This document shows positions 30,121 through 55,775 of a stretch of 57,734 nucleotides of DNA, one piece after another. Below the pieces are notes generated by a model. It saw only the letters and a list, made by a program, of their open reading frames with translations. It searched no databases and was not told the origin of the DNA. The stretch lies in IMG/VR virus record IMGVR_UViG_3300030107_006967, positions 1-57,734 of that record. One strand, given 5' to 3'. Within the stretch, counting starts at the first letter, position 1, and each line of letters starts with the position of its first letter. This DNA comes from a virus. Lineage: Duplodnaviria > Caudoviricetes. A program made the translations under genes and the position numbers.

Positions 30121-32970
30121 TTACTTCTTAAGGTTTGTGATAACTTTTTTCAAGTCGTCGATTTGAACTTGTTGAGCCTTTACAGCCTCTACGAGAACAG
30201 AAGTAAGCCTTGAATAGTCAACACCGTGGATTCCGTCATTACCTACGGACACGGCTTGTGGGAGAACGCTCTTTACGTCCTGAGCGAGGAAACCGAAGTC
30301 TCTTTCGCCAGAACCTTTCCAAGTGAACTCAACACCATTAAGGCTCATAACTGCATCGAGAGCATTGTCCATAGCAGTTATTTCTTCCTTGAGGCTTTCA
30401 TCCGAGTAGGTTACGAAAGCAGTTGCCTGAATTTTACCAGCATCGCCAGCAAGATTCGCAACTTCAATAGCGTATCCACTTGTTGTTGTGCCCAGTTCGA
30501 GAATTTGAGCAGTTCCATTGTGCATGACCGCCTTGTCATCAGAAGCGTCATACATGAAGTATGCGCCAGCAGTGTCACCGAAAACTTTGAAGTCATTGGA
30601 CATAGATCCATCATTCTTGTTAATAGTAACATCAGTAGCGAATTGGGTTCCGCCAGAAGCCGCTTTAGCAAAGGTAACCCCGCCTCCGCCGCCGAAGCCA
30701 CCAAGAGTGGAGAAACCAGCTTGAGAAGCATCACTGTCCATTTGAATAGCAGCTACACCTTGACTGTTAGCGATATTTTCTCCGATAATTTGGACATTTC
30801 CGTGGAAACCAACATTACGACTTGCAGACTCAAGTGTCATATTTGGCGTAGTTCCAACAGTAGAGCCAAGACCAATCAACAACTTATCTGCGGAATCGTC
30901 AAGACCCATATAGAAGTCTTGTGCGTTACCGTCAAAAACAAGCTTGCTATCTTCTGCGTCAGCATCACCGATAACAAGTGTCGGAGTAGTACCAGCGATT
31001 ACAACACCTGCTGCTGGAGCAGCAATGCGAAGCTGATCTGCTCCATCTTCGTCATACTCAATGGAAGCATCTTGATCATTACCGAAGTAAATTTTCTTAT
31101 CATCAGCGATGTAAACATCGCCAAATTCTGCACCGGTAGAACCAATGTCAGCACCGCCAGCGGCGTCTGGAAGGAGTGAAGTGTTAACGGTGACAGTTGT
31201 GAATGTTGCAGCAGCAGCAGATTCTCCACCGATTACTACTCCATCGATTTCACCAGAGCTGATATATGCAGCAACTGGGTCTGCATCTGTACCAAGTTGA
31301 TCGATGTAACCAATACCATTAACATAGAGATCTTTCCACTGAAGACTTGCAGCACCTAAGTCATAAGTGTTATCAGTTTTAGGATCAATATCAGCAGCAA
31401 TGCGACCAGTAATAACAACATCATCACCAGTGGCATCACCAAGAGTTACTGCGCCGTCAAAAGAAACAGCCTGTTCGAATGTTACAGCATTGCCAGCGAA
31501 ACGAAGTTCACTTGTGCCGTTTGCATCATATTCGATGGATGCGTCTTGATCGCTACCGAAGTAGATTTTCTTGTCATCAGCAAGGTAAACGTCGCCAAGC
31601 TCTAAAGTTGCAGAACCAAGGTTTGTTCCACCAGCGGTTACTGGTAAGAGGTTGGAAGCGAGATTTACCGCTCCAGTTACATTAAGGGTTCCACCCAAGA
31701 ATGCATTGCCTTGGAAAAGAACTTCACTTGACCCGGACATCTTTCCTGATGTAGAGACAGCGCCTACTAATTCAGAAGATCCTGAAACAGCAAGGTTGCT
31801 CGTGAATGTAGCACCGTGCGCTTGAACCTTAGAAGAGCCCGAGATGCTTGTTGCTGTGAACGCCTTTGAAGAAAGTGGACCAGAGAAAGTCACTGTGTCG
31901 TTGGATTGGTTACCAAAGGTAACATTCCCACCCAAATCAACATTGAAGTCTAACTTGTTTGCAGCAATTGCAGCATCAGACTTGACATTGGCGTTTACAA
32001 CAGAGTTGTCAGCCAATTTTGCCTCAGTAATAGCGTCGTTGGCAATAGTCAAAGCACCGCCAGCAGCAACAGTTGCGTCACTGGAGATTGTTACGTAAGA
32101 CGGATCAGTTCCATCAGATTGAAGGAATTGTGCAGCAGTACCTTTTGCAAGAAGTGAAGGATCACCAGATGCATCACCTAAGATGATAGAACCTCTAGTA
32201 ATGCCTGCCATCTTAGCCAAAGTAACTGCGTTGTCAACAATGCTTGCTTCAACGACAGCGTTAGCAGCCAGCTGATCAGCGCCAACTGCGTCATCAGCAA
32301 TCATTGCTTGCTCAACAGCGTCGTTAGCGATTGTTACTGCACCATTTGCAGCGAGAGCAATGTCACCAGATACTGCAACAGAATTAACATCTGTTCCGTC
32401 ACCGACAAGGATTTGACCGGATGTCTTCGCATCTAAGTCAGTTGGAGCATTAGCAGCACCACCAACCTTGACAGACCCACGAGTGATGTTTGCCAACTTA
32501 GCGTTGGTTACTTGATCATCAGCGATGTGCACTGTGTCGATTGCGCCATCAGCGATTTCATCAGAGTTAACAGCGTCATCAGCAAGCATGCTGTTTTCAA
32601 CTGCTTGAGCAGCAATTGTAAGCGCTCCGGCAGAGTTGATTGTGGCGTCACCGCCAGTAACCAAGGCGAAAACACCTTTGGCGAGATTTGTCATACTAAC
32701 ACGCTTTTCAGTTCCGTTGTCAGAGACAAGGAACTCATCTTGAGTGGCGTGAGGGGCGTCATCCAATTCAGTAAATGAATCGATATCAACAGATTTTTCG
32801 AGATCAATTGGGTTTCCGTCCTCAAGTTGCATATAAAGTTTAGCATTGGTCATCGTACCACTAGCAAAGAGGTAGACACCACCCTTTGGGGCGGATGCAG
32901 GGTCTCCAGAACCTGAAACGTTCTGAAGTTGAATATATTTACCATATTCTGATTCTGTAAAATAAGCCAT
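30121..32970 (-). CDS. Long fibre protein with C-terminal peptidase S74 intramolecular chaperone
   Basis: Ala/Asp/Gly/Thr-rich repeats (AVxxxxIADD pentads); C-terminal YSDESLK...L.GV.F.WK...GFLAQDV..VLP.AV...VDYSRL...LVEAVK. Confidence 0.85.
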   Translation of the reverse strand: MAYFTESEYGKYIQLQNVSGSGDPASAPKGGVYLFASGTMTNAKLYMQLEDGNPIDLEKSVDIDSFTELDDAPHATQDEFLVSDNGTEKRVSMTNLAKGVFALVTGGDATINSAGALTIAAQAVENSMLADDAVNSDEIADGAIDTVHIADDQVTNAKLANITRGSVKVGGAANAPTDLDAKTSGQILVGDGTDVNSVAVSGDIALAANGAVTIANDAVEQAMIADDAVGADQLAANAVVEASIVDNAVTLAKMAGITRGSIILGDASGDPSLLAKGTAAQFLQSDGTDPSYVTISSDATVAAGGALTIANDAITEAKLADNSVVNANVKSDAAIAANKLDFNVDLGGNVTFGNQSNDTVTFSGPLSSKAFTATSISGSSKVQAHGATFTSNLAVSGSSELVGAVSTSGKMSGSSEVLFQGNAFLGGTLNVTGAVNLASNLLPVTAGGTNLGSATLELGDVYLADDKKIYFGSDQDASIEYDANGTSELRFAGNAVTFEQAVSFDGAVTLGDATGDDVVITGRIAADIDPKTDNTYDLGAASLQWKDLYVNGIGYIDQLGTDADPVAAYISSGEIDGVVIGGESAAAATFTTVTVNTSLLPDAAGGADIGSTGAEFGDVYIADDKKIYFGNDQDASIEYDEDGADQLRIAAPAAGVVIAGTTPTLVIGDADAEDSKLVFDGNAQDFYMGLDDSADKLLIGLGSTVGTTPNMTLESASRNVGFHGNVQIIGENIANSQGVAAIQMDSDASQAGFSTLGGFGGGGGVTFAKAASGGTQFATDVTINKNDGSMSNDFKVFGDTAGAYFMYDASDDKAVMHNGTAQILELGTTTSGYAIEVANLAGDAGKIQATAFVTYSDESLKEEITAMDNALDAVMSLNGVEFTWKGSGERDFGFLAQDVKSVLPQAVSVGNDGIHGVDYSRLTSVLVEAVKAQQVQIDDLKKVITNLKK

Positions 32971-33634: not shown

Positions 33635-33871
33635 CTAGTCCTTATATTTAGCATCATATTCTCTTTGAAGCCTTTTTAATATTCTGTTGCGTTCTTTTCT
33701 TTTGCGGCGGCGCTTATCCGTTGGTTTTTCAAAAAACATATGTTTTTCTCGCCATTCATCTTGAATGCCTTCTTTTTTAACCTTTTTTATAAATCTCTTG
33801 ATCATCCTTTCGGGAGATTCATTTTTTCTTGGTGTAACCTCAACATTAACTGGTTTTGCTCTCTTTCTCAT
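33635..33871 (-). CDS. rpsU: Phage-encoded 30S ribosomal protein bS21
   Basis: V...KNES.ERMIKRF.KKVKKEGI..E.R....FEKPT.KRRRK matches the bS21 consensus. Confidence 0.88.
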   Translation of the reverse strand: MRKRAKPVNVEVTPRKNESPERMIKRFIKKVKKEGIQDEWREKHMFFEKPTDKRRRKRKERNRILKRLQREYDAKYKD

Positions 33872-41123: not shown

Positions 41124-42050
41124 TTATACATCTAATTTATCTAGTTTTTCAGCCAAAAGGTCTATTTTCTTTTGCTGCTCTTTTATTGCTTCTACTAAAA
41201 ACGAAATTATCCTAGTGTAATCCATTGTGTTGGCATATTGAGGATCTGCGCTCCACTCAACAATTTCGGGGATTACCTTTCCTACTTCCTCGGCAATAAA
41301 GCCAAAATCTTTTTTCCCCGTATCTTTCCAGCTATATGATACACCCTGAAGCTTGCTAATTGTTTTAACGGCGGACTCAAGGGGCTCAACATCTTTCTTG
41401 TACCTTATGGAAGAATATGATACGAAAGCATTTGCCTTCACCTTACCTGCTGGATCGCTAGTATCTGGTAAAGTTATCCCATGGCTTGCATTTCCCTCTC
41501 CGACGCCGACACCCAAATAATTTTCTATATTTACGGCGGAGCCAGATATTGTAACGCCTCCCGGATTGGTAGAACCAGAAATGACTAATGCATTGCTAGG
41601 GTCGGTTTGAAAAAATATTCTTGCTTCGTTGTTTGGTCCAAAGTTAAAGGCGGAGGCTGCGCCTTCTGAGGCGACAAACTGGATTGCGCCGCCAATCTTC
41701 AGGGGGGATGCACCCTCCAGTGTTCCGTCTATCTGAATTGTCGAGCCAGACAGAACGATGCCCTCAGATGATCCGGATATTACTAAAAAGTCATCCCCAT
41801 TTTCGTTGTACTCTATATGACCTTCTTGCGTGTCTCCAAAGTGAAGTTTTTTGTCATCAGGAATGGTTATCTCATTTCCATCAAAAACAACAGTGGTCAC
41901 AGCCCCAAATGATCCACCGTCATTAAACTGAAGCTGCCTGTTGCTCCCGGCTGGATTTCCTGCAACTTCACCAGTTGGTATTCTGTCATGAGTTTGCTTT
42001 ATTATCGATACTAATTTTGCGTGACTATACTTGCCAATACCTGCTGCCAT
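41124..42050 (-). CDS. Short fibre protein with C-terminal S74 chaperone
   Basis: G.N.QLQFNDGGSFG, DDKKLHFG module; YSSIRYK...L.GV.Y.WK...GFIAEEV..VIPEIV...MDY.RI..LVEAIKEQQ. Confidence 0.8.
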   Translation of the reverse strand: MAAGIGKYSHAKLVSIIKQTHDRIPTGEVAGNPAGSNRQLQFNDGGSFGAVTTVVFDGNEITIPDDKKLHFGDTQEGHIEYNENGDDFLVISGSSEGIVLSGSTIQIDGTLEGASPLKIGGAIQFVASEGAASAFNFGPNNEARIFFQTDPSNALVISGSTNPGGVTISGSAVNIENYLGVGVGEGNASHGITLPDTSDPAGKVKANAFVSYSSIRYKKDVEPLESAVKTISKLQGVSYSWKDTGKKDFGFIAEEVGKVIPEIVEWSADPQYANTMDYTRIISFLVEAIKEQQKKIDLLAEKLDKLDV

Positions 42051-46279: not shown

Positions 46280-49200
46280 TTATTGGTTTACACAAGCAAA
46301 TCCATTTACTTTATCAATCTCGATTGTCATATCGGCAATATCTTTAAGGTGATCTACGTGTGAGATAAGTAAAACAGTTTGGTAATATGACTTTATCATA
46401 TCCAATATTCGAATAAAGCCCTCCATATTTTCGGCATCTAGGGCTGTTGCTGGCTCATCTAGGATGAAAACTGAGCCTTTTGGCAAGGAAGACACCGAAA
46501 GAAGTGCGAGGCGAATTGCCATGGCAGCAATAGTCTTCTCCGCTCCCGAGCCCATCTCAATTGGTCTTGCTTCATATTTTGGGTGCTTGATATAAACATC
46601 CAACTTGTTGCCCTCGCTCTCGAAAAAAACTTCAAAATCAACTACATTAGCCAACACTTTGCTTATTTCATCATTGATTACGGGCAACTTTTTCTTAATA
46701 ACATCAAGCGAGATACCATTAGTGTGCATACATCGCATAAACAAATCATAAGCAGCAAAATTATCACGCAAAGCTTCCATTTCCGCCTTTTGTGCGATGA
46801 GATTTTCTAATCTCTGCTCTAGAGACCCGCGCTCTTTAATTAAGACAACAATTTCTTTATTGCAATCGCCCAAAACACTCTGCTGACCTTTGAGGTTATT
46901 TTGTTGCTCTACCTTTTGGGAAAGGAGTTGTTCCAAATTTTCAATAGCTTCACGATTTTCTTCATATTCTTCTATTTTCACCTGTAGCTTTTCTATCTCA
47001 AGATTCAAAACGGATACATTACTCTCGTTCTTCTCAATAACAAGCTCATTTTGGTTGATAGTATTATAAATATCATCACGCATTTCTAATACTTCTTCGT
47101 ATTTATCTATTTTCTTGTCTATCAACTTGGGATTTAAACTTTGTATATCCTCATACAGGGTTTCAGACTCTTCACGAAGCTCTCTGATGTTTTTTTCAAT
47201 AACAGTTACATTACCTTGAGCCTTGTAAGCGTCTTTAATAAACTTACAAGACCTGTATTCATTTCCACATGGCACCTCAAGAAGAAGTTTAACTTTATTC
47301 TTGTTTTGAGTTAGTCGATATTCCTGTTGTTCGATAGAATGGTTTGTTGCCTTTAAAAGAACTTGATTATCTTCTATTTCATTCCTATGGCTTCGAAGAG
47401 CTTCAATATCAAAGCTATCCAAAACCTGACTTATTTTCTTGTGATCTATTCTTTTTGACCGATTCTCTTCTTTCAGAAATTTTATTTGTTCAACCAAATT
47501 ACCAACTTCGTTGTTTTTTGTAATTTGTTCCTCTTTTACCTCAACAATATTTATAATCTCTGTGGGTATTGAATCTATTTTCCCGATGATTTCGGAAATA
47601 ATTGTTTCGGTTTTTTCGATTGCAGAAGAGTATTTCCTGCATCTATTCTCTTGTTTTCTCTTTGCGGTAGTGTTTTCTTCAAGCGATTGTTTGACATTTT
47701 CGATGTCGGTATCATATTCTTTACCCTCTAGTAGTTTTAATGCACCCTTCATATCAGAGGCATCTTCTTTGGCTTTCTTAAATTTCTTGTCGAAGATTTC
47801 TAGGTCAAGGAATTTTCCTAGTATTTCTTTGCGTTTAGTTGATCCTTCGTTGATAAAAGATAGGCTATCAACCTGAGAAGCCATCGAAGTAAGTAGGAAG
47901 TCTTCGACTGTTCCGAACATTTTTCTTATGTTTTTGTCAGTTCCGTTTCGGCTATCGCCGTTCAGTTCGTTTTCTTCCTGCATAACGTTGTCGTAGCAAG
48001 AGAAGTTGAGGTCTGTTTTAGCCTCTAAAGTTTCAGTCCCCTTGAGTTTCTTCAAATACTTGTAGGAACTTCTTTCAATGGTATAGTCTCGATCACCGAT
48101 TCTGATCTCAAGCCTACCCTTCCCCTCTTCTTTATTTTGGTTAATAACATTGAGGTTCTTTCTCTCATTCTTGCTTGTGGAGTTGAATAGGGTATAGAGC
48201 AAGGCATCAATGATTGAGGACTTTCCTGAATAGTTCTTCCCGAAAATACCGACAATCCCGTGGAGCCTCTCAAAGTTAACCCTGTTGTTTTCCCCATAGT
48301 TAAAGAGATTGTCCCACTCAAAAGATTTAAGGGACCAGTTAACATTTCTGGATACCTCTTCCTCTTCTTCAGCCATCGTATTGTACTTTCGGTTAAGAGA
48401 AAATACTTTTTCAAGAGTCTCTGGTGTGGCTTCATAGTCCTTGAGATACTCGTCGATGAGTTCTTCTTGGACTTTGGGATCTCGCAGATCTTCAATGTTA
48501 ATGCCGTCAGTCAGGTCTTGAACGGACCCCCGCTCTCCACTAGACCTGTTGAGAAAGGTTACACTCTCAGGCTTAAATCTACCCTTAGCAATGTCTAAGG
48601 CTCTCCGCATAACATCAAGTGGTAGGTTGTTCTGGGATACTAGGCGTAACCGAGCACCATTTGGAACCTCTAGGTTCTTAGGCATCTTGCCCTTTGGCGT
48701 CAACTCAATAGTAACAAAGGGCTTGGGATTGGCGAGTGGGTAGTGTTCGCAGGTAAAATTTTCTTTACCTTTAATGTCCCAAAGTAAAAATCCCTTGTCT
48801 TCGCTCTCACCAAAATTCTGTTGCACCAGAGACCCCGGATACGCTACTTTGCCTTTTTCATCAAGCCGCTGGTATGTCTTGTGGATATCTCCCAACAAAG
48901 CATAGTCAAAAGGGGCGAAATTCTTAATGTCTATATCCCCATGTTCCATAACCCAACCAGTATCAGTTGTGACACCAGCGACAGATCCGTGGAAGAGGGC
49001 AATATTTACCTTACTTTCGTCTGTTGGGTCTATCCATTTGTCCTCATCAATAATAGAAAGGACGTTGAGGACAAAGCCATTGCCCAAGTCTACTTCCTGC
49101 GAGAACTTATGAAAGTGAATATTTTTGTGGTCTAGTGCCTCAACAATAGGAGTTACAGCGTCAATTTTGCCCGGATTGCGAAGGTTTAGGTCGTGGTTCC

Positions 49201-49432
49201 CAAGTATAACGTGTAAAGGCGCTATGTCTGCTAAGTTCTCAAAAAACTTGGCAGTCATATGAAAATATGCAGGACTTAGCTGCAATTTGGTATGTGCTGT
49301 GTCGCCCGTGTTCACAATAATGTCTGGTTTAAGTTCTCGTAGTTTTTCATAGAGATCCTCAAATACAGCCTTGTACTCTTCATGATACCTATGGTTCCTG
49401 ATATGAACGTCTGAAATGTGTGCAATTTTCAT
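46280..49432 (-). CDS. Fused Mre11/SbcD nuclease - Rad50/SbcC ATPase (gp47-gp46 fusion)
   Basis: SDVH, TGD, GNHD, FHG, GDIH, YPGS; then GKNYSGKS, ASQ, coiled coil, GSGAE, FILDEP, ISH in one 1050-aa ORF. Confidence 0.9.
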   Translation of the reverse strand: MKIAHISDVHIRNHRYHEEYKAVFEDLYEKLRELKPDIIVNTGDTAHTKLQLSPAYFHMTAKFFENLADIAPLHVILGNHDLNLRNPGKIDAVTPIVEALDHKNIHFHKFSQEVDLGNGFVLNVLSIIDEDKWIDPTDESKVNIALFHGSVAGVTTDTGWVMEHGDIDIKNFAPFDYALLGDIHKTYQRLDEKGKVAYPGSLVQQNFGESEDKGFLLWDIKGKENFTCEHYPLANPKPFVTIELTPKGKMPKNLEVPNGARLRLVSQNNLPLDVMRRALDIAKGRFKPESVTFLNRSSGERGSVQDLTDGINIEDLRDPKVQEELIDEYLKDYEATPETLEKVFSLNRKYNTMAEEEEEVSRNVNWSLKSFEWDNLFNYGENNRVNFERLHGIVGIFGKNYSGKSSIIDALLYTLFNSTSKNERKNLNVINQNKEEGKGRLEIRIGDRDYTIERSSYKYLKKLKGTETLEAKTDLNFSCYDNVMQEENELNGDSRNGTDKNIRKMFGTVEDFLLTSMASQVDSLSFINEGSTKRKEILGKFLDLEIFDKKFKKAKEDASDMKGALKLLEGKEYDTDIENVKQSLEENTTAKRKQENRCRKYSSAIEKTETIISEIIGKIDSIPTEIINIVEVKEEQITKNNEVGNLVEQIKFLKEENRSKRIDHKKISQVLDSFDIEALRSHRNEIEDNQVLLKATNHSIEQQEYRLTQNKNKVKLLLEVPCGNEYRSCKFIKDAYKAQGNVTVIEKNIRELREESETLYEDIQSLNPKLIDKKIDKYEEVLEMRDDIYNTINQNELVIEKNESNVSVLNLEIEKLQVKIEEYEENREAIENLEQLLSQKVEQQNNLKGQQSVLGDCNKEIVVLIKERGSLEQRLENLIAQKAEMEALRDNFAAYDLFMRCMHTNGISLDVIKKKLPVINDEISKVLANVVDFEVFFESEGNKLDVYIKHPKYEARPIEMGSGAEKTIAAMAIRLALLSVSSLPKGSVFILDEPATALDAENMEGFIRILDMIKSYYQTVLLISHVDHLKDIADMTIEIDKVNGFACVNQ

Positions 49433-49680
49433 TTCGCCTTCCTTACTAATTCTAGCTCTTCATTCCACACGGGCATCGGATGTGATGCCCCTGCTGGTAT
49501 TACCATATAATAATACTTGTTCCAATCGTGATTGGCACCTTGTACTTTTCCCTTTACTTCTGATATCACTCCAAGCATTTGCAGTGAGTTCTTGATCAAC
49601 ACTAGATCTCCGACCTCAAAGGACTTATAACTTCTAACCACTTTATCGGCATCGGATCTGCCTTGTTGTTTGATACCCAT
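49429..49680 (-). CDS. Small SH3/KOW-like hypothetical protein
   Basis: FEVGDLVLIK....LGVI.E...ELELV. Confidence 0.6.
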   Translation of the reverse strand: MGIKQQGRSDADKVVRSYKSFEVGDLVLIKNSLQMLGVISEVKGKVQGANHDWNKYYYMVIPAGASHPMPVWNEELELVRKAK

Positions 49681-49790
49681 GTTACCTCTGCCACTCCTAA
49701 CTCTTCGCTCATGTCCGTAACAATACCCAAAGGCGAATTATTTGGTAAGCCTATGGGCGTTTTATAGTATACTAAATCACCGATCTTCAT
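49602..49790 (-). CDS. Small SH3/KOW-like hypothetical protein (start MKIGDLV at 49790)
   Basis: MKIGDLVYYK...LGIVTD...AEVTW...WLEVIS. Confidence 0.6.
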   Translation of the reverse strand: MKIGDLVYYKTPIGLPNNSPLGIVTDMSEELGVAEVTWVSNNKADPMPIKWLEVISPLRSEI

Positions 49791-49791
49791 A

Positions 49792-49827
49792 ATAAAAAAG
49801 CACCCTTGCATTTTAACAAGGGTGCTT
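49792..49827 (-). terminator. Terminator hairpin overlapping a promoter
   Basis: AAGCACCCTTG/CAAGGGTGCTT 11-bp stem followed by a T-run. Confidence 0.7.
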
Positions 49828-49848
49828 AATAAAGTCAAGAACTTTTTT
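49810..49848 (-). promoter_or_regulatory. Sigma70-type promoter
   Basis: AAAAAAGTTC-TTGACT-17 nt-TAAAAT. Confidence 0.65.
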
Positions 49849-51545
49849 TATTTTTGGAGTTTAGGATAAATGCCTGAGCGCAGATCTACATCTCCAAAAA
49901 GAATAACGCGATTATCTCCAGTAGAAACTCTAACTGAACTTTTAACGCGATTGCCATTTACCCTAGTGGAAACCTTCTGATACTGGTTTACATCTAAGGG
50001 AATAGAAGTGACTCTTGTCTCAGCTAGGGGTGTGACCTCTTCCGTGGTGCATTTACCATCGTAGTTTGTGTCTGCCCACACATAAAGATTTCCGAATCCT
50101 TTGTCTTTTACACTAACTACTCCATCTTTGTTTGTGTCCATAGTAGCTAGATGGGCGAATCCTCCCGAAAACTCTGGTGAGGTTCCAAAGAACTCTGTTC
50201 CGTCGTCGGCAATACCATTAGAGTTTTTATCAACAAAGAGGAATCCATCTCCACTAAGCCAACTAACCGCCGTGGTTCGTTTGCCAAACATAGAAAAGTT
50301 AACCCCATTCTCTACAGATGTGATATCAAAGCGTCCATTATTGTTTAAATCAATAATAATGGGGTCTGACACATTGCAAGGCACAACTTTAAAGATCTTT
50401 ACAGCAGCCAAAGCAAACTCATCTGCAATTCCTACCTGAAGCGCATTACTATAATCGCTTTGTGCCTGTGCAAACATAATCTCATCATCGCTGCTAGTTG
50501 GAACATAGTCATCACAAAGTGGATTCTGTTCCATAGCTTGACTGATAGTGTTCATTGCTTCGTTAAAAACTGGGTCTAGCAAGGACTCATTAGCCTGACA
50601 AACTTCGATAGGGTCTGACATAATTGGATAATCTGCTGAATAACCATTTGTGGCGAGCCAATTATTCATAGAGTTAATAAAATGTTGCCGACCAACTACC
50701 TGTCCTTTTTCCTCAGAACTTTTAACAGGAGAAGGGTTCACGTTACAAAGCTGTTTTGCTTTTAGGTCCACACGCACAAGCACACGAGCTTCCTCCAAAC
50801 CGCTGACAGCACCTTGTTCGAACCAAAAATCTTCTTCGCTAAGATCCGGATCATAACTTTCTCGGTTAGCTTTAAGAGTTCCGTAGAGTTTAGAATATGC
50901 CTCCGAACGGGCTTTGTCTACGAGATATTCGCATGCATAACCAGTCATAACAGCTTGATTATTATAAAACTCTACATAAGGACAATCCGATACCTCTGGT
51001 AGATCACTGCTTTCGTCTAGGATCTGATAACCGTTATCAATCCCAAAGCCTTCCAGTGCCAATGAGACTTGAGCCAAATAAAGTTCCTTGCCGACATCAA
51101 GACCCCCAAAAATATTGTCTCGCAAGATTTCAATTTCAGCAAGATCTTCTGCCGTCAAGTCCTCTAGGCTAACTTCGTCTTCAACCGGATCTACTTCGGT
51201 TGTCTCCTCCTCGATTGGCTGCTCTTCAGCAGGGTCAGCCTCTACGGGATCCGAAGGATCAGACCCCTGTTCGGGGGTCGTCTCCTCGGTTTCCGTTGGA
51301 ACCGTGTTGGTTTCATTGTTTTCATCTACTTCAGTAGGCTCAACTGTCCCAGTGTTTTCTGGGGTGGTTGTGGTCTCGTCCGTAGTAGTTGTGGTGGTGG
51401 TAGTAGTGGTAGTTCCACTATTATCATCAGCACCAATGAAGGTTGTACCTTTAGTGTTTTCAGTTGTCTCGGTTGCTGTTTCAGTTGTATCTTCACAGGC
51501 AATCAAGGCAAATGCCAACATTACTCCAATAATAAAGTTTCTCAT
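49848..51545 (-). CDS. Lipoprotein with Thr/Glu-rich stalk and C-terminal FrpC-like self-processing (Ca-binding) module
   Basis: Lipobox ALIA-C; SD-PIIIDLNNNG, W..GDGFLFVDKNSNGIADDGTEFFG, GFAHLATMDTNKDGVV...D..F..LYVWADTNYDG....E...L. Confidence 0.8.
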   Translation of the reverse strand: MRNFIIGVMLAFALIACEDTTETATETTENTKGTTFIGADDNSGTTTTTTTTTTTDETTTTPENTGTVEPTEVDENNETNTVPTETEETTPEQGSDPSDPVEADPAEEQPIEEETTEVDPVEDEVSLEDLTAEDLAEIEILRDNIFGGLDVGKELYLAQVSLALEGFGIDNGYQILDESSDLPEVSDCPYVEFYNNQAVMTGYACEYLVDKARSEAYSKLYGTLKANRESYDPDLSEEDFWFEQGAVSGLEEARVLVRVDLKAKQLCNVNPSPVKSSEEKGQVVGRQHFINSMNNWLATNGYSADYPIMSDPIEVCQANESLLDPVFNEAMNTISQAMEQNPLCDDYVPTSSDDEIMFAQAQSDYSNALQVGIADEFALAAVKIFKVVPCNVSDPIIIDLNNNGRFDITSVENGVNFSMFGKRTTAVSWLSGDGFLFVDKNSNGIADDGTEFFGTSPEFSGGFAHLATMDTNKDGVVSVKDKGFGNLYVWADTNYDGKCTTEEVTPLAETRVTSIPLDVNQYQKVSTRVNGNRVKSSVRVSTGDNRVILFGDVDLRSGIYPKLQK

Positions 51546-51568: not shown

Positions 51569-51916
51569 TTACTCTTCTTCTTCTTCGTCTTCGTCGTCTT
51601 CTTCCTCTAGCTCTTCGCCTTCCTCGTCAGATTCTTCGGACTCTTCCTCCTCTTCTTCTTCAGCTTCTTCTTCTTCTTCTTCTTCTTCTTCTTCAGCTTC
51701 TTCTTCTTCAGCTTCTTCTTCTTCAGCTTCTTCTTCGGCTTCTTCTTCAGCTTCTTCTTCGGCTTCTTCTTCAGCTTCTTCTTCGGCGGCATCAGATTCC
51801 TCTTCAGCAGCCTCTTCTTCAGCCACTACTGCTTCGGCACAGTCTGCGGCTTCTTCTTCTTCGTGGCATCCAATAATGCTAAACACTAGCATGGATGCAA
51901 TAATCAAGTTTTTCAT
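51569..51916 (-). CDS. Poly-glutamate lipoprotein (true start MKNLII at 51916)
   Basis: AAGGAG SD; lipobox-like SIIG-C; mature part almost entirely E/A/D. Confidence 0.75.
   Translation of the reverse strand: MKNLIIASMLVFSIIGCHEEEEAADCAEAVVAEEEAAEEESDAAEEEAEEEAEEEAEEEAEEEAEEEEAEEEEAEEEEEEEEEEAEEEEEEESEESDEEGEELEEEDDEDEEEEE
51573..51860. repeat. Imperfect GAA/12-bp (GAAGAAGAAGCY) tandem repeats encoding EEEA
   Basis: Runs of TCT/TCTTCTTCAGCT on the plus strand. Confidence 0.85.
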
Positions 51917-51932
51917 AAAATAAATTCTCCTT

Positions 51933-52892
51933 TTAAAAATCAAAACTATTGATAAACTTTTGTAAATATGCGTCTTCCGACGACACACGCCTTGCGGCTT
52001 TTTTCCTCTTCAGGAATTCCTTTTTCGGCATTTCGCCGACATCACTATACGGCAATATATCTATTTTGTATACCTCCGCACCATATTTTATTAAATTTTG
52101 TATAAGAAACGAAGCTTTCTCCTCGGCATCAGAGTCTAGTGCAACATAAACTGGCGTTTCATTCATAATAATACTTTTAAACAACTTTGATTGTTCCTTA
52201 AGCGAAGAACCCAATATGGGTACCGAATTCTTGCCAGCTACTATAGCATCAAATACACCCTCTGTCAAGGTTAAATCTTCGCACCAGTCAATATATAGTT
52301 CATTAAAGATTATCTTACTCTTAGAAGTGCGAGGATTCATATATTTTCTCCAATCATCCCGGTATGTTCTAGCAATAAAGAAGTTGCAGTCACCGCTTTC
52401 ACTAAAAGAGGGAATTATTACTCTTCCTGCATATTCCCCACTAGAACAATACCCTATTTTCCAAAATAAAATGTCTTTATCTGATATATTTCTCTTGTTT
52501 AGGTAGTTTTTGGCTATTTTAGCCTCGATTGAATTGTTTTTGTTAGCCAAAGAAACAAATTCTCTAGGCAAATCTATAACAATCTCTTCTTCTGGCTCAT
52601 TTTGCGGAAATATGCTCTCTAAAATGTTTTCAAAGTCTAAAAGATTTAGTTTTCCTGATAGTTCTTGCCATTTTGACCTTTTTTCATATGAAGCGTACTT
52701 CCTAACCAGACGATATATGCTATTTCCTCTATAATCGCAGATCCAACACTTAAAAACATCCTTATCGATATTAACACTCATCTTTTTCTTGTGATGATTG
52801 CATTTGGGACACGCAAACAGGTGCTCTTGTCCTGTTTTATTGTATCCTCCAAGAAAATCTTTAAGAATTTTTACTTTTTCGTTCTTCGACAA
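51933..52892 (-). CDS. DNA primase (Zn finger + TOPRIM); likely TTG start near 52892
   Basis: CPKC.HH...FKCWIC, YL..R, GRVIIP, FIAR, KYMNP, TEGVFDA, ALDSDA, DVGE. Confidence 0.88.
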   Translation of the reverse strand: MSKNEKVKILKDFLGGYNKTGQEHLFACPKCNHHKKKMSVNIDKDVFKCWICDYRGNSIYRLVRKYASYEKRSKWQELSGKLNLLDFENILESIFPQNEPEEEIVIDLPREFVSLANKNNSIEAKIAKNYLNKRNISDKDILFWKIGYCSSGEYAGRVIIPSFSESGDCNFFIARTYRDDWRKYMNPRTSKSKIIFNELYIDWCEDLTLTEGVFDAIVAGKNSVPILGSSLKEQSKLFKSIIMNETPVYVALDSDAEEKASFLIQNLIKYGAEVYKIDILPYSDVGEMPKKEFLKRKKAARRVSSEDAYLQKFINSFDF

Positions 52893-53405: not shown

Positions 53406-54590
53406 TTATATATCAAGTTTTAGCTTAAATGTCAAGTCTCTTTCTTCAGTCTTTTTTACTGGGGTTGCTAGTTTGGCGACGGCAATTAGCCTCATGTCGT
53501 CATCATAAATCCCAATCTTGGAAATGTATGTTTGTTTTTTGAACTCTGCTGGCAAATCTGAATATGCGCCACTAACAGTATTGTGTGCTTGCATTCTTTG
53601 ATCTTGGATGTATTTGTTCTCGGTAGTTGTAGTTCCATCAAAAATATCTCGGGCGCTTGATGCTGAAAAGAAGGTTGGATTTTGTGAATAATTTAATCTA
53701 TTTCTTTCAGCATGGGCAAACATTGTTAATCTTGGAATAGTTGTAGAGCCAGAGAATTTTAACTCAAAACTACTATTAGGGATATTATAGCCCAAACTTG
53801 TTATTTCTGCCCCGACTCCATAGTATATCCATTTAGGATTAACACCAGATCCAATGTAGTTTTCTGAGTGTGCAGGGTCTAATGTCCACGAGCCTGTCAA
53901 CACTATTAACCCCTCGTTATAAAGTACAACACCTGCAACAGAACCCGAACCAAAGTCGGCTCCTAATTCATTGGCTGCTCCAGCTACCTGCCTAAGTTCG
54001 CCATTACCTCTTTCATCTTTCAGTCTAGCAACCAAGGTTCCTGTAACATAAAAATTTAACTCAACATTTGTTTTTTGCAGACTATCGCCATAGAATATCG
54101 AAGGAATAGATATTAGGTTAATGTCTTGGTCGGACTTGTCCCCTAAACTTGAGTTATAAGCGTAGTGATTACTTCGTGTTTTGTAATAATTTAAAGTGTT
54201 TTGCAGGGCTTCAATTTTATCCCTGCTTTGCCCTTGTGCGTAATAATTTCTAGATATGCTGGCAGAGAGGGGGTAGCTACCTGTCAAAGTATCGCCATAC
54301 TGAAAGTCTGCATTATATTCGGATGTTGATATTGTTTTGAATGCTGTGAGGCTGCCGTTCTTTGACACAAAAGGGTATATAAGCTCTGCCGTTGGTCTGT
54401 CAACGTTTATTTCGTACAAGCTTGTATATCCAACCGGGACACCATCGACTGTAGTTGGTCCCCTGTCAGCTAACAACTCAGGCTTGTTGTTATAATAAAT
54501 TGCACCTTGGTATATAAAAAAGTTCTCCCTTGGGTGAACTTTTACCGTATTATATATTAAGTCATCTTGTCCAAACTTGTAGTAAGGCAC
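53406..54590 (-). CDS. Baseplate/tail structural protein (GTG start)
   Basis: G.V.YNEG.IV, YSQNPTF, YISKIGIYD....LIAVAKL..PVKK...L.F.LKLD; paralogous to the next gene. Confidence 0.6.
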   Translation of the reverse strand: MPYYKFGQDDLIYNTVKVHPRENFFIYQGAIYYNNKPELLADRGPTTVDGVPVGYTSLYEINVDRPTAELIYPFVSKNGSLTAFKTISTSEYNADFQYGDTLTGSYPLSASISRNYYAQGQSRDKIEALQNTLNYYKTRSNHYAYNSSLGDKSDQDINLISIPSIFYGDSLQKTNVELNFYVTGTLVARLKDERGNGELRQVAGAANELGADFGSGSVAGVVLYNEGLIVLTGSWTLDPAHSENYIGSGVNPKWIYYGVGAEITSLGYNIPNSSFELKFSGSTTIPRLTMFAHAERNRLNYSQNPTFFSASSARDIFDGTTTTENKYIQDQRMQAHNTVSGAYSDLPAEFKKQTYISKIGIYDDDMRLIAVAKLATPVKKTEERDLTFKLKLDI

Positions 54591-54605: not shown

Positions 54606-55775
54606 CTAGTAATCAAGCCTTACTCTTAAAGTAAGCTCTGTGTCTGGTGATTTCTTGAGTGGCTCTGACACCTTTGCAACTGCCAGTAATTCGTTTGTAG
54701 CACTATACAAACCAACGCTTGTTATGTAAGAGACAGGTTGTTCGAGCGTGTTTGTCTTAACTCTTATTTGGCTGTCCTTGAGATAGGTTGGGTTCGAGCT
54801 ATAATTAAATTCGTTATGTGCTGCTCTACAGAAATAAATTGTAGAATTTAATTCAGTCGTATTGTTAAAACTAAGATTGTAAATTCTGTTTCTAATGGCA
54901 TCACAGGAGCCAGAAATAGAAGACCCCGTGATGAAAGCAAATCCGGTTGCTCCTGCTGTTTTGTTAAATGGGTTTCCTAAAGCCATTGAGCCAATTGCGT
55001 TTTTTAGGAGACCCGGCCCTCCGGGATTGGTGACTGTAGCGACATCACTAAACAAAGACCCAGTGATGACAGCAACACCTGCTTGATAATAGATTAAGCC
55101 AACAGGTACCTGTTCATTTTCTAGGGTCGCATTCGCTACAACGTCATTGGATGAAGTAGCATAAAGAATACCATATTCTCCAGCAGGAGAATTTACATGA
55201 TACTGAGATGATCCGCTAAGATCTTTTACAGAAAGTAGTTTGCCGAAATTTCTTCCCGTGAAGTCTGCTGTATTGCTAAGGGTTCCATCGTTAGAGCCCG
55301 ACATTCCAAACACAACCTCAAAAGTACCTTTCTTAACTTCGTCTTTTTGCAACAATCTAGCAAAATTAATGAAGACTACTTCTGTCATTTTTTCGCCGCC
55401 AGTAAGGTTACCGTCCTTATCAAATGGTCGAATGTTTCCATTAACATCATGCCCAACAAGCATTTGAGCCATTTGCTGGTAAACATTAATCTTATCTTCT
55501 TGTTGTACTCTGTCGGAGGAGGCTGACATTCCAGACCCAGTACCATATCCTACAGTAATATCCAAGATATGATTTGCCGACGAGCTAAGGTAAGGATAAT
55601 CATAAACCGACTGGAACAAGCCATGCGAGTAGTTTTTAATGTTCGTCTCTGTAGTGGTGTATCCTTGGTTATACGTACCAGACAAAATCGACCCTGTTAC
55701 CGGGATTGCTTCGTGGAGCAATGTTCTGGTTGATGTTACATCATTGTTTAAAAGTTGTTTAAAAGTTGTTGCCAT
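54606..55775 (-). CDS. Baseplate/tail structural protein
   Basis: G.IYYQAG, FNYSSNPTY, YITSVGLY...NELLAVAKVSEPLKK...LTLRVRLDY. Confidence 0.6.
   Translation of the reverse strand: MATTFKQLLNNDVTSTRTLLHEAIPVTGSILSGTYNQGYTTTETNIKNYSHGLFQSVYDYPYLSSSANHILDITVGYGTGSGMSASSDRVQQEDKINVYQQMAQMLVGHDVNGNIRPFDKDGNLTGGEKMTEVVFINFARLLQKDEVKKGTFEVVFGMSGSNDGTLSNTADFTGRNFGKLLSVKDLSGSSQYHVNSPAGEYGILYATSSNDVVANATLENEQVPVGLIYYQAGVAVITGSLFSDVATVTNPGGPGLLKNAIGSMALGNPFNKTAGATGFAFITGSSISGSCDAIRNRIYNLSFNNTTELNSTIYFCRAAHNEFNYSSNPTYLKDSQIRVKTNTLEQPVSYITSVGLYSATNELLAVAKVSEPLKKSPDTELTLRVRLDY

Follow-up and report, generated by a model that had tools for sequence, protein, structure and literature searches.

A lipoprotein of a T4-like marine phage ends in a homologue of the FrpC self-processing module

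Does a bacteriophage encode the clip-and-link chemistry of the protein FrpC, and what could such a protein serve on a phage genome? The question is raised by one gene on the virus record IMGVR_UViG_3300030107_006967, of which 57,734 nt were analyzed (herein the window; all positions and strands refer to this whole stretch). Its open reading frame (ORF) encodes a predicted lipoprotein of 565 amino acids (aa) with a self-processing module (SPM) at the C terminus. Clip-and-link, meaning Ca2+-triggered cleavage of an Asp-Pro bond that yields a protein anhydride, is one of very few means by which a protein made of ordinary amino acids can weld itself to another. According to the main text of Kuban et al. 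2020 (PMC7078468), the natural purpose of this chemistry is still unclear; it is linked exclusively to very large RTX proteins that Gram-negative pathogens export by type I secretion, and the SPM is stated to be exclusive to RTX proteins.

The C-terminal 171 aa of the phage protein are a true homologue of the FrpC SPM, a conclusion on which the sequence, a profile, the predicted fold, and the key residues agree. When the whole protein was compared by phmmer with 177,635 distinct PDB sequences, only the two FrpC SPM entries 6sjx and 6sjw matched (E values 4.8e-15 and 5.2e-15), and the alignment starts exactly at the Asp-Pro. The profile of 35 diverse family members matches 6sjw with an E value of 4.4e-49 over chain residues 1–171 of 179, and this match takes in the C-terminal strand, with G551-D552-V-D-L555 lying on G578-D579-L-L-L582. 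The full-length AlphaFold2 (AF2) model, built from 68 homologues with a mean predicted local distance difference test (pLDDT) score of 73, reaches pLDDT values of mostly 82–92 over residues 395–565. With this model, Foldseek gave two matches only, again 6sjx and 6sjw (E values 1.6e-9 and 4.7e-9; target template modeling scores 0.73 and 0.74). VIA-align, which is independent of Foldseek, aligned model residues 395–562 with chain residues 1–175 of 6sjw among 48,161 chains (Z 20.6; root mean square deviation 2.7 Å; 157 aligned of 179), the next row having a Z of 6.2. The structure compared herein is a predicted one, not a solved one, and the fold that it matches, two perpendicular β-sheets and a helix-turn-helix, was reported as novel in 2020 (PMC7078468). 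Scans with NCBIfam and with a Pfam version lacking PF26745 assigned no significant family to the protein. An earlier note on this DNA, made from the sequence alone, had proposed an FrpC-type module, with alignment to the FrpC SPM as the check and a missing structural match as grounds for giving it up; the agreement in sequence, profile, 6sjw fold, and key residues bears the proposal out. Its anatomy stands as well: the Asp-Pro, the stretch DPIIIDLNNNG that begins at residue 394, and the EF-hand-like motifs (GDGFLFVDKNSNGIADDGTEFFG at residues 432–454, DTNKDG at 470, and DTNYDG at 492) all lie where it had put them, as do the lipobox, the Thr/Glu/Pro stalk (105 aa, given as ~110), and the Cys-containing helical domain. 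The module reaches the C terminus as claimed, and its length is 171 aa, P395 to K565 with the stop codon directly after, instead of the 172 aa given.

Conservation was counted across 121 homologues of 38–94% identity, and the roles of the FrpC residues were taken from the main text of Kuban et al. 2020 (PMC7078468) and mapped via phmmer and profile alignments. D394-P395 is kept in 120 of the 121 homologues, the remaining row being a gap. All four EF-hand-like Ca2+ sites are present, and metal binding is predicted from them. Site 1 is formed by D399/N401/N403/G404 and D433 (FrpC D419/D421/D423/G424 and D456), of which D399, G404, and D433 are kept in 119–120 homologues, and N401 and N403 are Asn or Asp in 120. 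The other three sites are each kept in 119, namely site 2 with D439/N441/N443/G444/E451 (FrpC D462-E474), site 3 with D470/N472/D474/D481 (FrpC D499-D510/511), and site 4 with D492/N494/D496/G497/E503 (FrpC D521-E532). Loop positions 1 and 12 of every site are kept in 119–120 homologues, and Pro395 and the Ca2+ ligands are invariant in the 35 diverse full-length members. The Trp pair W429 and W490 (FrpC W451 and W519) is kept in 120/121 and 119/121, respectively. G454 and G462 correspond to FrpC G477 and G491; the former is kept in 119/121, and the latter is Gly in 93 and Ala in 26. G551-D552 corresponds to FrpC G578-D579, with D552 kept in 118/121. Ahead of the module, C390 lies four residues before D394 and is kept in 120/121, and the nearby lysines K383 and K386 are kept in 116 and 99 homologues.

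Three further parts precede the module. The consensus of a lipobox is [LVI][ASTVI][GAS]C, and the N terminus agrees with it by having a hydrophobic signal followed by LIAC, from which lipidation is predicted. C17 is kept in 113 of the 121 aligned homologues, and lipobox-type N termini are found throughout the distant family members. The stalk consists of 33% Thr, 21% Glu, 9% Asp, and 9% Pro; it is highly variable in length and sequence across the family alignment, and AF2 gives a pLDDT below 50 across residues 1–122. With its 105 aa, it gives the helical domain a long reach from the membrane. Six cysteines at 188, 205, 267, 316, 344, and 390 characterize this helical domain, each of them kept in 119–121 of the 121 homologues. 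Modeled alone, the domain is all helical with a pLDDT of 86.4 and a predicted template modeling score of 0.86. Its best PDB matches are membrane helices and PhoU-like bundles at Z 5.8–6.2, values that amount to noise among helical proteins. No Foldseek match reached E≤1e-3, and the Protein Atlas gave no usable match. The full-length model likewise matched nothing at E≤1e-3 among the BFVD viral structures, a search in which a multidomain query may miss single domains. Hence, the modeled fold is not one that these comparisons recognize, and no new fold is claimed.

The gene belongs to the phage. All 60 substantial ORFs of the window lie on the - strand, and their PHROG matches comprise tail sheath, tail tube, baseplate hub and wedge, major head protein, head maturation protease, portal, and large terminase, and further a UvsX-like recombinase, a gp32-like single-stranded DNA-binding protein, a DnaB-like helicase, primase, a RuvC-like resolvase, an SbcC-like nuclease, ribonucleotide reductase, and ribosomal protein S21. 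The window is that of a T4-like marine myovirus. CheckV rates the record as 32% complete; since relatives of 106 and 120 kb are rated as 60 and 66% complete, the phage genome has a size of about 180 kb. The nearest cellular relatives of the SPM protein lie in metagenome-assembled genomes (MAGs) of Myxococcota, which would fit cellular DNA wrongly joined to a phage contig. Everything else speaks against such a mis-assembly or contamination, and it is given next to no credence. The placement between a primase and an SbcCD-like gene is the same in L001, L003, and L005, and 13 other IMG/VR contigs of 35–267 kb hold a relative at 36–91% identity, to which a scan with the SPM only adds L049. This amounts to 15 viral contigs with the window included, wherein the gene occupies at least three different neighborhoods. 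Contig pieces from three sequencing runs tile the region; one of these runs, X1, may come from the source sample, and the pieces from X2 and X3 bridge the 3′ end of the gene to the next downstream phage ORF without differences. The guanine-plus-cytosine (GC) content of the gene region, 0.42–0.43, fits the 0.35–0.45 across the rest of the window, whereas that of the MAG loci is 0.53–0.72; and the major head protein of this phage is contained in none of the five Myxococcota MAGs carrying a homologue (0/5) that were searched for it. The earlier note had assigned the gene to the phage contig and had suggested a survey of viral databases: phage genes throughout the window, the identical bridging pieces, and the 14 further IMG/VR contigs confirm the assignment.

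How far does the family extend beyond this phage? Within a collection of 5.8 billion proteins, 129 relatives were found at E≤1e-3 among 7,993 scored candidates; those with a named source are marine or metagenomic, nearly all 530–600 aa long and with the precomputed Pfam family PF26745. Truncated members that lack the C-terminal part carry no PF26745, and we therefore infer from these sequences that this family, which is not named in the literature searched, covers the SPM. The helical domain alone, searched exhaustively with HMMER among 1.84 billion proteins, gave 61 cluster representatives, most of which begin with a lipobox; 37 also have an SPM by phmmer, and two more align through the SPM. 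The remaining representatives are mainly fragments, and at least four of them (P0140, P0169, P0172, and P0176) end just past the domain (…C-x-x-G-P, stop) with no SPM. As a side observation, these four stop where the phage protein has C-N-V-S-D-P and look like natural, already clipped forms. For the viral loci L034 (6001–7617) and L035 (6001–7590), tblastn matches the whole protein and the longest ATG ORF covers ~300 C-terminal residues, so that an interrupted gene, another start codon, or a sequencing error is possible there.

Among species-representative genomes, 25 cellular loci (L008–L032) were found, with titles naming Myxococcales, Myxococcota, Bradymonadales, or Polyangiaceae in 18 cases, "Deltaproteobacteria" in 2, and unclassified proteobacterial MAGs in 5. 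The helical domain is patchy, occurring in 7 of 201 sampled genomes of the phylum Myxococcota. The gene is not confined to phages: Myxococcota-type MAGs have the same architecture of lipoprotein, helical domain, and SPM, and it is among their sequences that the phage copies nest. A maximum likelihood tree (62 rows, quick search, midpoint root) places the clade of the window, consisting of eight viral and two metagenome rows with a support of 100, inside a group of MAG sequences, and a second viral pair, L038/L039, beside a different Myxococcales sequence (support 99). When all viral rows were constrained to one group, the tree lost 98.5 log-likelihood units (p 4e-8 in the approximately unbiased test), the group having been named after the tree was seen. 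It follows that the gene was exchanged between Myxococcota-type bacteria and phages at least twice, the direction of which would need a root. As for the host, the terminase has its best isolate match in a Flavobacterium phage, with no more than 42.8% identity, Shine-Dalgarno use is intermediate, and no tRNA was found in the window; the 20 runs listed for the sequence include none of RNA.

With architecture, homology, and conservation established by computation, the following course of events is proposed. The precursor would leave the cytoplasm via Sec and receive its lipid on Cys17. Once beyond the cytoplasm, which is poor in Ca2+, the SPM would bind Ca2+ and fold, and the folding would strain the D394-P395 bond, so that the D394 side chain attacks its own carbonyl (a twisted amide) and the bond breaks. 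The 171-aa SPM would be released, and stalk and helical domain would stay lipid-anchored, ending in a cyclic Asp anhydride. This sequence of export, lipidation, Ca2+-driven folding, cleavage, and release is what we consider probable. Seawater contains about 10 mM Ca2+, a concentration that saturates the module, and the trigger would therefore be the export itself and not an environmental cue. For the FrpC SPM, a Ca2+ affinity of ~150 μM is given, compared with less than 100 nM in the cytosol, and cleavage is described as proceeding through a twisted amide that the Asp side chain attacks (PMC7078468). A disulfide of C390 probably pins the tail before D394. Finally, the anhydride would acylate the amine closest to it, which may belong to a Lys of the helical domain or of a protein that this domain has bound; the other outcome would be hydrolysis. 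This link step, along with the identity of its target, is advanced tentatively and carries less than even confidence. In the engineered system described in PMC12538545, homologous SPMs of 60–98% identity to FrpC were fused to unrelated binders, and all of them cleave and ligate; the SPM is therefore portable, and the domain order found here is sufficient in principle.

A hint at a target is given by the cellular loci. In 16 of the 25, the adjacent gene encodes a protein of ~560–750 aa with a lipobox of its own. In 14 of the 16, this gene lies directly downstream (with a 4-nt overlap in L012); L030 and L031 have it upstream, on the opposite strand. Five of these 16 neighbors were scanned, and each contains a Big_7 Ig-like domain together with a PQQ/BamB-like β-propeller; NCBIfam BamB models match the neighbor below cut-off. 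This β-propeller lipoprotein is the obvious candidate partner. For FrpC, the N-terminal part binds the operon-encoded outer-membrane lipoprotein FrpD with a dissociation constant of ~0.2 nM, as stated in the accounts consulted (PMC5233953; PMC7078468), and the Myxococcota SPM lipoprotein with its adjacent lipoprotein parallels this arrangement. No such protein is encoded in the phage records searched; if the analogy with FrpC/FrpD holds, the target of the phage lipoprotein would be a protein of the host. The targets that the earlier note had named, a receptor, incoming virions, or neighboring or prey cells, are conjectures. The most likely use of the gene would be to fix the lipoprotein irreversibly onto an envelope protein of the host, the best candidate being a host relative of the BamB-like β-propeller lipoprotein, and the purpose would be to alter or block this envelope protein in infection, for example, to exclude other phages or to shield progeny from receptor-bearing debris. 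The most far-reaching form of this idea makes the anhydride an export-triggered covalent weapon on the envelope: the helical domain would dock on a host protein, either the BamB-like β-propeller lipoprotein or the phage's own receptor, Asp394 would be welded to it, and receptor masking or superinfection exclusion would follow; alternatively, the anhydride would be tethered to the diaminopimelate amine of peptidoglycan. We regard this as rather unlikely. If true, it would be the first natural SPM role outside RTX proteins and the first covalent host-modifying phage lipoprotein, and the diaminopimelate variant would be a phage-made, enzyme-free tether from outer membrane to cell wall in the manner of the Braun lipoprotein. 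In any case, the family suggests that phages may modify host envelopes covalently.

Several points weigh against cleavage followed by linking. The only tested SPM feature that differs, and one that FrpC does not strictly need, is the equivalent of FrpC D478, which is T455 in the phage protein and Thr in 94 and Asn in 25 of the 121 homologues. Cleavage by FrpC is abolished in D579A, strongly reduced in D478A, and moderately reduced in D478N; the double mutant D478N/D579N is not dead, and in the main text the authors conclude that D478 and D579 play a structural part, as ligands of a fifth, transient Ca2+ site, and are not catalysts (PMC7078468). The phage module thus looks competent by its sequence but may cleave more slowly, since T455 replaces a residue whose mutation lowers cleavage. 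Furthermore, D394 is absent in 4 of 35 distant family members, which have Ser-Pro or Thr-Pro instead, so the fold can persist without the chemistry. Both observations could be read as a module that has lost efficient autoproteolysis and acts as a structural or Ca2+-sensing C-terminal domain, the more so as T455 falls on the proposed fifth, catalytic Ca2+ site. However, D394, P395, and D552 are each kept in 118–120 of 121 homologues down to 38% identity, which a purely structural role would not need, and FrpC with D478N still cleaves; a noncleaving domain is hence considered quite improbable. For the whole family, cleavage and cross-linking are predictions from sequence and modeled structure.

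Other points on the same side of the balance bear on the linking. The anhydride may hydrolyze or cyclize onto K383 or K386, and self-cyclization was seen in the engineered system, for which the hydrolyzed product is described as a normal outcome (PMC12538545). The four SPM-less helical proteins imply that the cargo domain can work without an anhydride. The β-propeller partner was not found in the window or in five related viral records, which are 9–85% complete and were searched with no positive control, and for the phage the partner idea is an argument by analogy. The promoter-like site, ~320 nt upstream of the two lipoprotein genes (Table 1), and the terminator-like hairpin are matches of the consensus type only. 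From the stand-alone helical domains that end at the same point, the hydrolysis, and the missing partner, one can build a clip without a link: the SPM would be a self-removing C-terminal pro-domain, be it a Ca2+-dependent folding helper, a keeper of export competence, or a timer, and after hydrolysis of the anhydride the function would lie wholly in the matured, lipid-anchored helical domain. Yet the retention of both Asp-Pro and C390 in 120/121 homologues suggests a reactive end that is held at a defined place, and the second lipoprotein paired with the SPM protein in 16/25 Myxococcota loci fits a bound target, as for FrpC/FrpD. We judge this pro-domain alternative unlikely, and cleavage that leaves an anhydride-tipped, lipid-anchored domain remains the preferred reading.

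Table 1. Positions of the SPM lipoprotein gene, its parts, and flanking features in the window
Feature	Positions	Strand	Remarks
SPM lipoprotein ORF	49848..51545	-	565 aa; ATG start, AAAGGAGA 8 nt upstream
Signal peptide and lipobox, residues 1–17	51495..51545	-	MRNFIIGVMLAFALIA then C17 (LIAC); C17 lipidation predicted
Disordered stalk, residues 18–122	51180..51494	-	105 aa; Thr/Glu/Asp/Pro-rich composition
Helical "cargo" domain, residues 123–393	50367..51179	-	All-helical AF2 model; six conserved Cys
Asp394-Pro395, predicted scissile bond	50361..50366	-	Aligns on FrpC D414-P415
FrpC-type SPM, residues 395–565 and stop codon	49848..50363	-	Sequence, profile, and fold matches
Companion lipoprotein-like gene	51569..51916	-	115 aa; MKNLIIASMLVFSIIGC...; directly upstream of SPM gene
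Sigma-70-like promoter match	52240..52268	-	TTGACA-17-TATAGT, TG before -10; 11/12 consensus; inside 3′ part of primase gene
Terminator-like hairpin	49798..49827	-	12-bp stem, 6 GC pairs, then TTTTTTATT; 20 nt past stop codon

The SPM gene is accompanied by a small lipoprotein-like gene, whose start was taken as the ATG at 51916 and not the GTG at 51988 given by the ORF finder. The mature part of its product consists of 67% Glu and 17% Ala (…EEEAEEEAEEE…). The two genes stand in the same arrangement in the window, L001, L002, and L004, and in L002 and L004 they stay together although the remaining flanking genes are different; no separate poly-Glu ORF is listed in 9 of 13 related loci examined. 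That the companion might act as a Ca2+ buffer delaying the firing of the SPM was considered and dropped, there being no evidence for it and the gene being missing from most relatives. The acidic residues after the cysteine, C17-E-D-T-T-E in the SPM protein and C-H-E-E-E-E in the companion, resemble the lipoprotein export signal of surface-exposed Bacteroidota lipoproteins, described as K-(D/E)2, SDDDD, or SDDFE right after the lipidated Cys (PMC5080379, in the part consulted). A Bacteroidota host is not indicated by the sigma-70-like promoter matches or by the Shine-Dalgarno-like motifs, which precede 25 of 60 genes. The two-gene cassette possibly has its own promoter. From its layout, the SPM gene looks like an accessory, moron-like phage gene: promoter-like and terminator-like sites flank the cassette, which is typical of a moron, and the gene is found in several neighborhoods, its transcription being predicted from the consensus matches. 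PADLOC assigned no defense family to the SPM lipoprotein or three of its neighbors.

Some observations concern the surrounding genes, all on the - strand of the window. The ORF at 49602–49838 was given a TTG start at 49838 inside the terminator hairpin, and its real start is probably the ATG (MKIGDLVYYK…) just past the T-run. At 46280–49432, a 1050-aa protein matches SbcC-like nuclease subunits with residues 330–1046; its N terminus presumably resembles an SbcD/Mre11-type phosphoesterase, so that we take it to be a fused SbcCD. The adjacent ORFs 53406–54590 and 54606–55775, of 394 and 389 aa, have no family match and are distant paralogues with 24–28% identity in cross-matches on related loci; L001, L003, and L005 retain the pair upstream of their RuvC-like gene. 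Two tail-fiber–like proteins (30121–32970 and 41124–42050) end in a Peptidase_S74 intramolecular chaperone (E values 1.4e-14 and 1.7e-13), which is another self-cleaving C-terminal module. The ribosomal protein S21 gene (33635–33871; PF01165, E value 1.9e-13; phrog_21469) lies between head genes and has 59 close relatives, all marine. On related contigs, a small cytidylyltransferase-like gene adjoins the SPM gene in two contexts (L001 7752–8219, L003 7433–7885, L034 7694–8161, and L036 4728–5138); PF01467 was confirmed for the ORFs of L001 and L036, and those of L003 and L034 have the same N-terminal sequence. The window has no such gene, and there the terminator comes directly after the SPM gene.

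Compared with known systems, the phage protein puts a known chemistry into a carrier, an export route, and a biological setting that are all new. Its module shares with the FrpC SPM a length of ~171–177 aa, the Asp-Pro at the N-terminal edge, the four EF-hand-like Ca2+ loops, the T-stacked Trp pair, the C-terminal G-D motif (D579), and the same predicted fold; it differs by having only ~30% identity and a Thr at the position of D478. In FrpC, a protein of more than 1,000 aa, RTX repeats and a type I secretion signal come after the SPM, whereas in the phage the module ends a Sec/lipobox lipoprotein, which makes a new architecture for a known module, as both the repeats and a type I secretion context are missing. 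The phage protein contains no GG.G.D motif, and the eight Pfam rows listed for it, even at E≤10, include no RTX-repeat family. Hence, being of 565 aa with an SPM that runs to the stop codon and no repeats, it stands outside the class of SPM-bearing RTX exoproteins (FrpC, ApxIVA), though carrying the module. Closer to that class are RTX-type giants on viral-labeled contigs (MT835772, "UNVERIFIED," and L053), which, like phrog_3677 ("protease"), have an SPM-like segment starting from D-P-L-(V/I)-(L/I)-D; the giants, with lengths of over 1,100–1,600 aa, have their SPM inside the protein and many GGxGxD repeats after it, no lipobox, and a cargo unrelated to that of the phage protein. As observed on these loci, L053 1579–6498 (an 89-kb IMG/VR contig) is an ORF of more than 1,640 aa and L007 2090–5425 (MT835772, an UNVERIFIED gut phage record) one of more than 1,112 aa; both run off the locus, have an internal D-P-L SPM with RTX repeats, and match phrog_3677 only via the SPM. 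The statement of the earlier note that there is no described phage example is thus to be divided: the literature searched describes neither a phage nor a lipoprotein SPM, but databases already tag these proteins with PF26745, and SPM-like segments exist in phrog_3677 and the two giants.

The Myxococcota-type family (L008–L032) has the same three-part architecture, the six Cys, and the …PCNV(S/G)DP junction of the phage protein, with 33–59% identity among its members and 23–47% to the phage protein. Its loci are cellular, high in GC, usually with the Big_7 and PQQ/BamB-like neighbor and with no poly-Glu companion, whereas the phage records have no β-propeller neighbor. The compact form of the SPM, predicted to be Sec-exported and lipid-anchored with the module last, is spread through marine phages and Myxococcota, and this small, two-component, tractable family offers a way to ask what clip-and-link chemistry serves. 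By description, the protein can be likened to Llp of phage T5, a small phage lipoprotein that masks FhuA by noncovalent binding and has no self-processing module. Both are phage lipoproteins outside the structural modules that act, or would act, on the host envelope, and the SPM protein would do so covalently. The family may also supply useful reagents, namely divergent SPMs with ~30% identity to FrpC that have evolved for a cold marine setting with 10 mM Ca2+. The domain order of such a reagent is already that of NeissLock, in which, according to the descriptions consulted (PMC7846742; PMC12538545), an engineered binding domain is followed by an SPM and the anhydride arises at the C terminus of the binder; the phage protein has the same order in a natural, lipid-anchored form.

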